Below are positions 20,059 to 21,184 of a stretch of 50,095 nucleotides of DNA, one piece after another (the first letter of the stretch is position 1; each line of letters begins with the position of its first letter). The position numbers and the translations under genes are program-made. The notes beneath the pieces are model-generated. The model saw nothing but the letters and a program-made list of their open reading frames with translations. It did not search any database and was not told the DNA's origin. Source of the stretch: a virus (Duplodnaviria; Heunggongvirae; Uroviricota; Caudoviricetes); IMG/VR virus record IMGVR_UViG_646564533_000009; one strand, 5' to 3'.

Positions 20059-20522
20059 TGTTTTGTTATGAAGATGTTACTGGTAACATTAAGGTAATTT
20101 AACAAAGAGTCAGTTCCGGACTTTATAGTGTGCTCAGTTCATGGCCAAAAACGATTTCTGTGATAAATATTTTGAATATTATTTACAGGTAAATGGAGTG
20201 GGGCGCATGGATAGAAATATTACAATAGAGTATGAAGTATATGCCCGTATTGTATGGGCAGAGAAGGCAAAAACACGGTAATTCCGTGTGTTGCCATGAT
20301 ACCTGATTGGCAGAATAGTTGTTTGGTTTTGAGTATATAGTCAGCGTTTTTTGTTCAGTAATTGCCCCCTCAAAAAATAATAAAATAAGGTGATTATTTT
20401 TGTTTATTATTTAGTTTTTTTGTGTGTTATTTTATTGTTTTTGCGTGGTTTGTTTTTTATTGTTATTTCATTAAGGGAAGGTAAATTCAGGATGGCAGTC
20501 TGTAGATAATCGGAGGTCACTT

Positions 20523-20837
20523 ATGCTACATGATCACGTGGCAGAATGTCTGGAGAAAAAAGGACTGTACCGGAGAGCAGCTGAACGATGGGCAAAAGTG
20601 ATGGTACAGCTAAGTGATGACCAGAAAAGAAAAGTGGCGGCACAGAAACGAGCAGAGTGTTTGCGTAAGGCGCGCCGGACTCCGGTTTCACCGGTGAACC
20701 TGACCGAAATAAAACAAGCGGTCAACAGACTACATTCTGAGTTGGGAATGGGATTTGAAGAGCGGCGGGTATTCCGACGATATAAAGGGACAGGAGAACA
20801 GAATACGTCCGGAAACGCGCGGTCAAAAAAATGCTAA
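20523..20837 (+). CDS. PerC-family transcriptional regulator (Pch-like)
   Basis: 104-aa; …RRAAERWAKVMVQLSDDQKRKVAAQKRAECL… resembles PerC/Pch regulators; preceded by about 450 bp of AT-rich sequence. Confidence 0.65.
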   Translation: MLHDHVAECLEKKGLYRRAAERWAKVMVQLSDDQKRKVAAQKRAECLRKARRTPVSPVNLTEIKQAVNRLHSELGMGFEERRVFRRYKGTGEQNTSGNARSKKC

Positions 20838-20918
20838 AAAATATCTGAGAGAGTTATTGCCTGTTACCATAAGAAAAAGCGACTTTAGTGGTCGCTTTTT
20901 GTGTCATATATAAGTCGT

Positions 20919-21143
20919 TTAAGTAAACCTGTCTGAACAGGTGCTCTGGTCGTGTTTGTCTTTGTTGGGTACAAATTGAGAATATTTTTCATTAATTAAT
21001 CTTCTTCTGCAGGCTTCAATAACCCACGCTGAAAAATTACCTGAACCTTTCTGGTCAAGAGCGATGTTAATTTGTTCAATCATCTGGTTTGGAAATCGGA
21101 TGTTGCGGGTTGTTGTTCTGCGGGTCCGGTTTTTCGGTGACAT
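20919..21143 (-). CDS. Hypothetical ribbon-helix-helix-like DNA-binding protein
   Basis: 74-aa ORF; basic N-terminus then RHH-like pattern (…NIRFPNQMIEQINIAL…SAWVIEACRRRL). Confidence 0.4.
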   Translation of the reverse strand: MSPKNRTRRTTTRNIRFPNQMIEQINIALDQKGSGNFSAWVIEACRRRLINEKYSQFVPNKDKHDQSTCSDRFT

Positions 21144-21184
21144 TTTCTTTCCTCTGGTGACAAGCTATATGGCGAGGATTTTAC

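Follow-up and report, generated by a model that had tools for sequence, protein, structure and literature searches.

A pchA cargo cassette and an adjoining YlcI/YnfO-family gene between the lysis and packaging genes of a lambdoid prophage

Which genes occupy the space between the lysis and the packaging genes of the virus record IMGVR_UViG_646564533_000009, and do they belong to one system? In this record (hereafter the window, the whole stretch of 50,095 nucleotides that was analysed), an earlier reading made from the letters alone had placed after Rz a PerC/Pch-family regulator, preceded by AT-rich DNA and followed by a small gene on the opposite strand, and had suggested that the small gene encodes a ribbon-helix-helix (RHH) protein serving either as a local repressor or as an orphan antitoxin. 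Our analysis identifies the region as a cargo cassette ("moron") carrying pchA in a lambdoid prophage, with the lysis genes on one side of it and the cos/terminase end of the phage on the other. We put at roughly 90% the probability of the explanation taken as a whole, namely a pchA moron with its own control region and a shared terminator, adjoining a YlcI/YnfO gene that stands apart from the pch system.

The RefSeq annotation of strain 2013C-4465 was used as a guide to gene names. Positions 14058-24221 of the window are 99.97% identical to this strain, and the larger interval 12000-36000 shares 99.9% identity with prophages of O55:H7 RM12579 and DEC5E. Judged by this identity, the window represents a lambdoid prophage whose host is an E. 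coli strain of the O55:H7/O157:H7 type. On the + strand, the Q antiterminator is followed by tRNAs, an esterase gene and the lysis genes for holin (18891-19097), lysozyme (19097-19594) and the Rz spanin (19579-20058; Pfam Phage_lysis, 2.1e-46; "lysis protein" in 2013C-4465). Rz, within which Rz1 (19811-19996) is nested, is the final gene of the lysis cassette and forms the left boundary of the pch cassette. On the other side of the region lies the packaging module, with an HNH endonuclease gene (21185-21715, + strand; Pfam HNH, 4.2e-06), followed by the small terminase subunit gene terS, at which the packaging genes start (21831-22394, + strand; Pfam Terminase_2, 2.7e-07, and the RefSeq annotation of 2013C-4465), and by terL (22391-24052). 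The HNH gene is frameshifted relative to its intact homologues (121 aa in strain A25), and RefSeq flags the equivalent gene of 2013C-4465 as a pseudogene. Between the two modules, a PerC-family gene (20523-20837, + strand) and a gene of the YlcI/YnfO family (20919-21143, - strand) face each other. The Rz, PerC and DUF3950 ORFs are all strong profile matches and not chance ORFs.

The PerC-family gene encodes a protein of 104 aa. An HMM search found the PerC domain (PF06069) with E=3.8e-44 and 149.3 bits against a cut-off of 22.6, residues 1-89 aligning on positions 1-89 of the 90 in the profile. The protein is 100% identical to PchA (ECs_1091), encoded by prophage Sp4 of E. coli O157:H7 Sakai, which bears out the proposed PerC/Pch-family regulator after Rz and makes the assignment more precise. 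All 315 nt of the coding sequence match Sakai pchA; it differs from Sakai pchB at nt 16, and from Sakai pchC at nt 16, 172 and 183, which are the positions that distinguish the group 1 pch genes (PMC5931665). UniRef labels the exact protein sequence "PchABC family transcriptional regulator". Both the sequence and the slot in a lambdoid prophage, directly 3' of the lysis genes, are those of PchABC group 1. By its sequence the gene is pchA, a member of this group, and not merely PerC-like. Its ATG is preceded at 6 nt by the Shine-Dalgarno motif GGAGG (20512-20516). Some relatives of PerC, namely PchD, PchE and K-12 YfdN, have little effect on ler (PMC5931665, PMC6265319), and the gene might in principle be a non-LEE regulator of the PchD/PchE kind or an inactive copy. 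Against this, its sequence is identical to that of PchA, which activated ler about 6-fold in a reporter assay (PMC5931665). With the ORF, the ribosome-binding site and the upstream region also intact, we regard such an alternative as extremely improbable.

PchA is a prophage-carried master switch for attaching-and-effacing virulence, and O55:H7 and O157:H7 are LEE-positive lineages. The host genome of this prophage would carry the LEE, to judge from the closest genomes, O55:H7 and O157:H7. That Pch-type regulators tie prophages to the LEE had been part of the sequence-only reading and is published for the identical PchA (PMC5931665, PMC4764244). Full expression of ler/LEE, as well as adherence, depends on pchA, pchB and pchC (Iyoda and Watanabe 2004, via PMC4456613, PMC6265319). 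With PchA, the activity of a ler-lacZ fusion on the chromosome goes up from 1,577 to 9,087 Miller units (PMC5931665), and Pch lowers the binding of H-NS at LEE1 both in vivo and in vitro (PMC4764244). Experiments have thus shown PchA to activate ler/LEE1 through the displacement of H-NS, and in the present strain pchA would likewise act as an anti-silencing activator of LEE1/ler. Measuring LEE1 activity upon expression of the regulator had been suggested as a check; because PMC5931665 assayed this exact protein, the corresponding reporter experiment is already in the literature. The pchA locus is thus a known one, the present copy being identical to a gene characterised since 2004, and it discloses no new mechanism.

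The AT-rich DNA in front of the regulator, first put at about 450 bp, measures 464 bp (20059-20522, + strand) and has a GC content of 33.2%, compared to 51.9% for the window and 52-54% for the flanks. Just 1.1% of 464-bp stretches reach such an AT content, and in the T-rich core of the spacer (20360-20480) the GC content falls to 23%. This base composition suggests that the spacer may be a target of H-NS silencing. The spacer is 98.3% identical to the upstream region of Sakai pchA, 94.6% to that of pchC and 90.3% to that of pchB, and the part that varies most among the pchA, pchB and pchC copies is the T-rich 240 bp immediately before the gene (20282-20522). A spacer of this type has been handled as the functional native promoter of pchA, at which Lrp/butyrate acts (PMC7279287), and pchA is also controlled by LrhA (PMC4456613). 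We propose that the 464 bp would constitute the gene's own regulatory region, with Lrp/butyrate and LrhA acting there as the literature describes. A consensus promoter scan of the locus returned sites no more frequently than expected by chance (3 compared to 3.1), the sole + strand site being TTGCCA-17-AATAGT at 20291-20319. Folding of the 5' leader of pchA (20440-20540) gave no structure beyond that of shuffled controls (z = -0.24), and an Rfam scan of positions 18000-22500, with E up to 1, returned no RNA family.

The spacer also contains an ORF of 46 aa (20141-20281, + strand), whose exact sequence is present in databases as "hypothetical protein", which is annotated in some genomes and which matches PHROG 2157, a family of unknown function. 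In the pchC copy, 5 non-synonymous changes and 1 synonymous change were counted by eye in the nucleotide alignment; the computed changes number 2 for Sp11, both non-synonymous, and 1 of each kind for A25. Because the changes among the pchA, pchB and pchC cassettes are mostly non-synonymous, this ORF is probably non-coding and was set aside as a candidate small gene.

The position of pchA within the prophage bears on a second source of expression, since Q, holin, lysozyme, Rz and pchA all lie on the + strand of the window. In strain PA20, the collinear pchC gene is induced about 8-fold by the SOS response whereas pchA, assumed to be in the inverted Sakai-type arrangement in that strain, is not induced (PMC5931665). 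From the strand that pchA shares with Q and the late lysis genes, and by analogy with pchC, we infer that transcription from the late promoter probably reads through into pchA upon prophage induction, in addition to the gene's own regulated expression. With the arrangement of the cassette intact and collinear, pchA is here predicted to be induced together with the prophage.

The distribution of the cassette was analyzed among 5426 complete E. coli genomes. The spacer and the pch gene, which behave as a single unit, were present in 672 of them, always at full length and with at least 90% identity, in a median of 3 copies. The cassette adjoins two unrelated packaging modules, the lambda Nu1-type module in Sakai Sp11 and Sp14 and the HNH plus Terminase_2-type module found here. 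One copy was located on a plasmid, beside an nleH pseudogene. Among 50,697 deposited phage records a single one contained the cassette, in the form of a 1.5-kb O157 fragment, and carriage of the cassette is therefore a trait of prophages and not of isolated phages. Two marks of a moron are present, a hairpin terminator belonging to the cassette itself and a base composition unlike that of the flanking phage genes.

The hairpin, AAAAAGCGAC-TTTAGTG-GTCGCTTTTT, is found at 20874-20900, 36 bases past the pchA stop codon. It is symmetric and folds on both strands, the surrounding stretches of 81 and 66 nt on the two strands giving -17.3 and -12.3 kcal/mol, respectively (z = -2.7 and -3.2). The stretch between pchA and the convergent gene is conserved, with 100% identity in strain A25 and 98.8% in Sp11. 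A simple consensus terminator scan did not list the hairpin at 20874-20900. It is a probable bidirectional intrinsic terminator for the two convergent genes, and in the proposed mechanism it would end the transcripts of both pchA and the YlcI/YnfO gene.

The small gene reported on the opposite strand, after the regulator and before the packaging genes, is indeed present and encodes a protein of 74 aa. It matches DUF3950 (PF13132; E=9.7e-20, 70.6 bits against a cut-off of 25) and the NCBIfam model YlcI_YnfO_N (NF041551; 35.7 bits against a cut-off of 30). Two parts can be distinguished in this gene: codons 1-50 (20994-21143), which make up the conserved domain, and a C-terminal tail (20919-~21000) that travels with the pch cassette. 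The N-terminal ~47-53 codons were detected in 4171 of the 5426 complete E. coli genomes (77%), in as many as 12 copies per genome, and include K-12 ynfO in Qin and ylcI in DLP12. Full-length matches including the pch-type tail were restricted to 670 genomes, which are essentially the pch carriers (672 genomes). The gene occupies comparable positions in phage lambda and in other prophages. In lambda (J02459), a homologue at 48145-48303 on the - strand lies about 200 bp from the right cohesive end and overlaps no annotated feature; in Qin, the antisense gene precedes nohA by about 390 bp and is flanked on the opposite side by ydfO, gnsB and cspI; and in DLP12 of E. coli B it precedes the small-terminase gene and has iss/bor on its other side. 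In a scan of viral contigs, which gave the closest relatives only and whose neighbour counts are biased toward pch-linked alleles, the gene immediately 5' of the ylcI-type start was a small-terminase or an HNH gene in about 73 of 80 loci.

The DNA 5' of the start codon is unrelated between the HNH and the lambda-type contexts, and beyond residue 50 or so the protein tails have diverged. The conserved unit is therefore limited to the 150-bp segment coding for the domain, and the same two features place the right edge of the pch cassette inside the gene, probably around codons 48-53. Because the edge falls inside the gene, the C-terminal tail varies with the neighbouring cargo. The conservation operates at the protein level: pN/pS values of 0.07-0.16, with synonymous divergence up to 0.57, reveal strong purifying selection, and YlcI/YnfO is a real, constrained protein.

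Combined with its distribution, these results identify YlcI/YnfO as a backbone gene of most lambda-like prophages and not as part of the pch system. They bear directly on the earlier proposal of a local repressor, which in its fullest form would make the RHH protein dedicated to pchA, setting its expression by binding either the AT-rich DNA before that gene or the 3' region common to both genes. The proposal has some appeal, as the two neighbouring genes converge on a common terminator, the YlcI/YnfO fold is probably that of a DNA-binding RHH protein according to the structural model, the tail and terminator of this YlcI allele co-occur with pch (670 compared to 672 genomes), and the equivalent pair in K-12, ybcW-ylcI, is a listed excludon (PMC12288877). 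However, since the N-terminal domain is found in 4171 genomes and pch in 672, a pch-specific role is disfavoured, K-12 and lambda both having the domain without pch, and the position of the gene is kept while the cargo changes. Column conservation in 25 family members shows the N-terminal domain to be near-invariant, including the strand that would read DNA, and the same YlcI allele stands beside pchB and pchC despite upstream regions that differ by up to 10-20%. Furthermore, Sakai pchA is functional although the adjoining ylcI is destroyed by IS629 (PMC5931665). A repressor devoted to pchA is on these grounds quite improbable. An effect through transcription itself is conceivable: the K-12 pair was listed as an excludon on account of overlapping transcripts (PMC12288877), and by analogy the YlcI/YnfO gene might interfere with the transcription of pchA, and hence with the LEE, in the lysogen.

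The label "RHH-like" given to the small protein stands as a plausible assignment of moderate support. The AF2 monomer consists of an extended basic arm followed by two confident helices, and its structural neighbours are mostly RHH antitoxins (MazE7, ParD2, TacA1 and a CopG/Arc/MetJ antidote). With the RHH proteins Arc/Mnt, MazE7, ParD2, TacA1 and MatP, its best structural neighbours, the predicted monomer shares the basic, extended N-terminal arm and the pair of helices. In hhalign, the segment NIRFP is matched, position for position, to NLRWP in the strand of Arc, but the alignments to Arc and Mnt are not significant. Searches of PDB sequences with the YlcI sequence and profile gave matches at chance level only, Pfam searches at E up to 10 with 25 family members returned no RHH family, and Foldseek found no match for YlcI in the PDB. 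An exhaustive HMMER search collected 113 clusters only, all of them DUF3950, and there is therefore no bridge to a named RHH family. On the strength of the model, the N-terminal domain is probably an RHH domain that binds DNA, and YlcI/YnfO is most likely a small dimeric RHH DNA-binding protein made in the lysogen. A search of the literature on ylcI, ynfO and DUF3950 found no functional study. This probable DNA-binding protein, predicted as such from its modelled structure, is encoded by a gene that ranks among the most widespread of the uncharacterised genes in E. coli prophages and is present also in lambda.

The similarity to antitoxins is what recommends the other role first suggested for the protein, that of an orphan antitoxin, here understood as a type II antitoxin whose toxin has been lost. 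Apart from the structural neighbours, this reading can draw on a HicB-like PHROG that the protein matches weakly (E=0.009), a match that speaks for the RHH fold as well, and on the co-directional gene ydfO (DUF1398), which comes after it in Qin as well as in 17 of the 80 viral loci. DUF1398 is not known as a toxin family. In the window, the stop codon of the YlcI/YnfO gene at 20919 is followed by the hairpin and then by pchA in antisense orientation, and no co-directional ORF there matches any family; because no such gene follows, YlcI/YnfO is not half of a toxin-antitoxin pair here. Likewise, no co-directional gene comes immediately after ylcI in DLP12, and the match in lambda overlaps no annotated feature. 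Strong purifying selection in all contexts also fits poorly with a decaying orphan. The antitoxin proposal is accordingly abandoned as very improbable.

The constant position of the gene raises a further possibility, that YlcI/YnfO is a cos-proximal DNA-binding packaging factor, acting on cos or terminase or on transcription that enters or leaves the cos region. The gene has the small-terminase gene as its neighbour with terminases of two unrelated types, and also in lambda, Qin and DLP12. Its distant relatives may also connect it to packaging. Homologues with 35-47% identity occur in Serratia, Xenorhabdus, Pectobacterium, Photorhabdus, Morganella, Enterobacter and Gilliamella, where they form part of small elements of the type integrase-(alpA)-DUF3950-primase, which resemble phage satellites. 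Two of these satellite homologues carry, as a fusion partner, the N-terminal DNA-binding portion of a small terminase of the Terminase_2 type. Such fusions recall Rpp, a satellite protein that mimics the DNA-binding domain of TerS to redirect packaging (PMC6739421). Some distant homologues stand alone in chromosomal contexts, which does not speak for a packaging function. In addition, the gene is antisense to the late operon, so that late transcription should oppose its expression at the time when packaging happens, and with upstream DNA unrelated between the two terminase contexts no shared operator is evident nearby. We consider a role in packaging unlikely on balance. A more elaborate version is slightly more doubtful still: YlcI/YnfO might set the specificity of cos or terminase, or gate transcription across cos in the lysogen, and satellites might have captured the domain as an Rpp-like fusion that redirects packaging.

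The closest known system is the pchA locus of Sakai Sp4, in which pchA likewise directly follows Rz in a lambdoid prophage. The two loci also differ. Firstly, the segment from holin to pchA is inverted between IS elements (IS629) in Sp4, whereas the locus described here is intact and collinear with Q and the late genes. Secondly, the adjoining ylcI-like gene is cut by IS629 at about codon 48 in Sp4 and is undamaged here. Thirdly, Sp4 has a lambda-type packaging module in place of the HNH/Terminase_2 module. The window thus displays the arrangement of the pchA cassette in its intact form, collinear with the late operon and with an undamaged neighbour, where the Sakai reference is rearranged by IS629. 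The Sakai loci of pchB (Sp11) and pchC (Sp14) share the order of Rz, AT-rich spacer, pch, convergent ylcI-like gene and terminase; their proteins differ from PchA by 1 and 2 residues, respectively, and their terminase genes are of the lambda Nu1 type, unlike the HNH and Terminase_2 genes found here. A more distant relative is PerC, encoded in the perABC operon of the EPEC EAF plasmid, which belongs to the same Pfam family (PF06069) as PchA and, like Pch, activates LEE1 (PMC4764244, PMC4456613). PerC is plasmid-borne and needed under some conditions only, whereas Pch is prophage-borne, multicopy and required for LEE expression in EHEC (PMC4764244).

As cargo, the pchA cassette occupies the same slot on the phage map as lambda bor and other morons located between Rz and cos, and it resembles morons in having its own terminator and a base composition that departs from that of its flanks. 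It differs from bor-type cargo in orientation, bor/iss being antisense and pchA lying on the strand of the late operon, and in product, a regulator of an unlinked pathogenicity island in the case of pchA and a surface protein in the case of bor. The gene next to it compares with YlcI of DLP12 and the lambda ORF, both 92% identical to the present protein over residues 1-53, and with YnfO of Qin, 82% identical over residues 1-65. All four are antisense and just upstream of a small-terminase gene or of cos. What differs among them lies on either side of the domain: beyond about residue 50 the tail follows the cargo, which is pch here, ydfO in Qin and bor/iss in DLP12, and the DNA upstream of the gene is an HNH gene here and the cos region in lambda.

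The packaging and head genes of the prophage appear to be disrupted at the HNH endonuclease gene and just downstream of terL. The HNH gene (21185-21715) carries an apparent frameshift near a G-run at about 21546-21556; the equivalent gene is a pseudogene in RefSeq and an intact 121-aa version is present in strain A25. Shortly after terL, the head-gene region is broken by a 1255-bp insertion (24222-25476) carrying IS3-family transposase ORFs. This insertion is missing from strain 2013C-4465, which is otherwise 99.97% identical (over 14058-24221). Combined, the frameshift and the IS insertion suggest, at the level of sequence, that the prophage would be defective for packaging. 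In the stretch separating the HNH ORF from terS (starting at 21831), the motif CAGTTAACAT(G/T)TT was found in five copies and in both orientations (21631-21760), one of the occurrences being a perfect 22-bp palindrome reading GCCAGTTAACA then TGTTAACTGGC (21631-21652). These copies are candidates for recognition sites of the small terminase or of cos.

The ylcI-like gene convergent with pchA (20919-21143, minus strand) belongs to the YlcI/YnfO family (DUF3950), and homologues of this domain with 35-47% identity were found in satellite-like loci, flanked by an integrase gene, a primase gene or both (L132, L135, L140, L141, L144, L148, L151, L152, L155-L158, L160, L164, L167 and L169). The hosts are Serratia, Xenorhabdus, Pectobacterium, Photorhabdus, Morganella, Brenneria, Gilliamella and Enterobacter. 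From this placement, the domain seems to belong regularly to a family of integrative satellites. A complete gene joining DUF3950 to the DNA-binding N-terminus of a small terminase of the Terminase_2 type is present on a Logan contig from SRR22184587 (L008, positions 4714-5103), where it is flanked by an integrase/AlpA pair on one side and by a primase on the other, an order typical of phage satellites. The protein P0255 is a second complete fusion of this composition. The L008 gene may be an Rpp-like device that redirects packaging (PMC6739421).

Among hits in genome contigs, the right end of λ was recovered with 92% protein identity (L096-L126, L139 and L145). The contigs measure about 3.5 or 48.5 kb, with the matches about 200-390 bp from an end, and the assemblies carrying them belong to unrelated taxa, for example Kitasatospora, Cohnella, Pedobacter, Flavobacterium and Enterococcus. 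The recovered sequence is almost certainly λ control DNA contaminating public assemblies.

In the upstream region of pchA, a 46-aa ORF (20141-20281) corresponds to PHROG 2157, and many genome annotations list it as a hypothetical protein. Cassettes share 98.6% of its DNA, but most of the substitutions between them are non-synonymous, and the stretch is more likely to be conserved regulatory DNA than a gene. Residues 7-47 of PchA (20541-20663) resemble the NCBIfam ANR (AraC negative regulator) family weakly, scoring 13.6 bits (E=0.046) for a cut-off of 32. Members of the ANR family reportedly interact with H-NS. Remote kinship between the two, for which the score is at chance level, would fit the anti-silencing role of Pch.

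An identical pchA gene with the neighbouring lysis genes is present on the 94-kb plasmid NZ_CP027549.1 (L007, positions 3463-4286), where pchA is followed by a pseudogene of the effector nleH instead of the ylcI-like gene. In Sp4 of the reference strain Sakai (L002, positions 22130-27400), holin, lysozyme, Rz and pchA form an inverted block, bounded by IS629 and ISEc8, whose orientation is opposite to that of Q and the terminase genes. This inversion would uncouple pchA from late transcription, in agreement with published data in which pchA is not induced by SOS, in contrast to pchC (PMC5931665).
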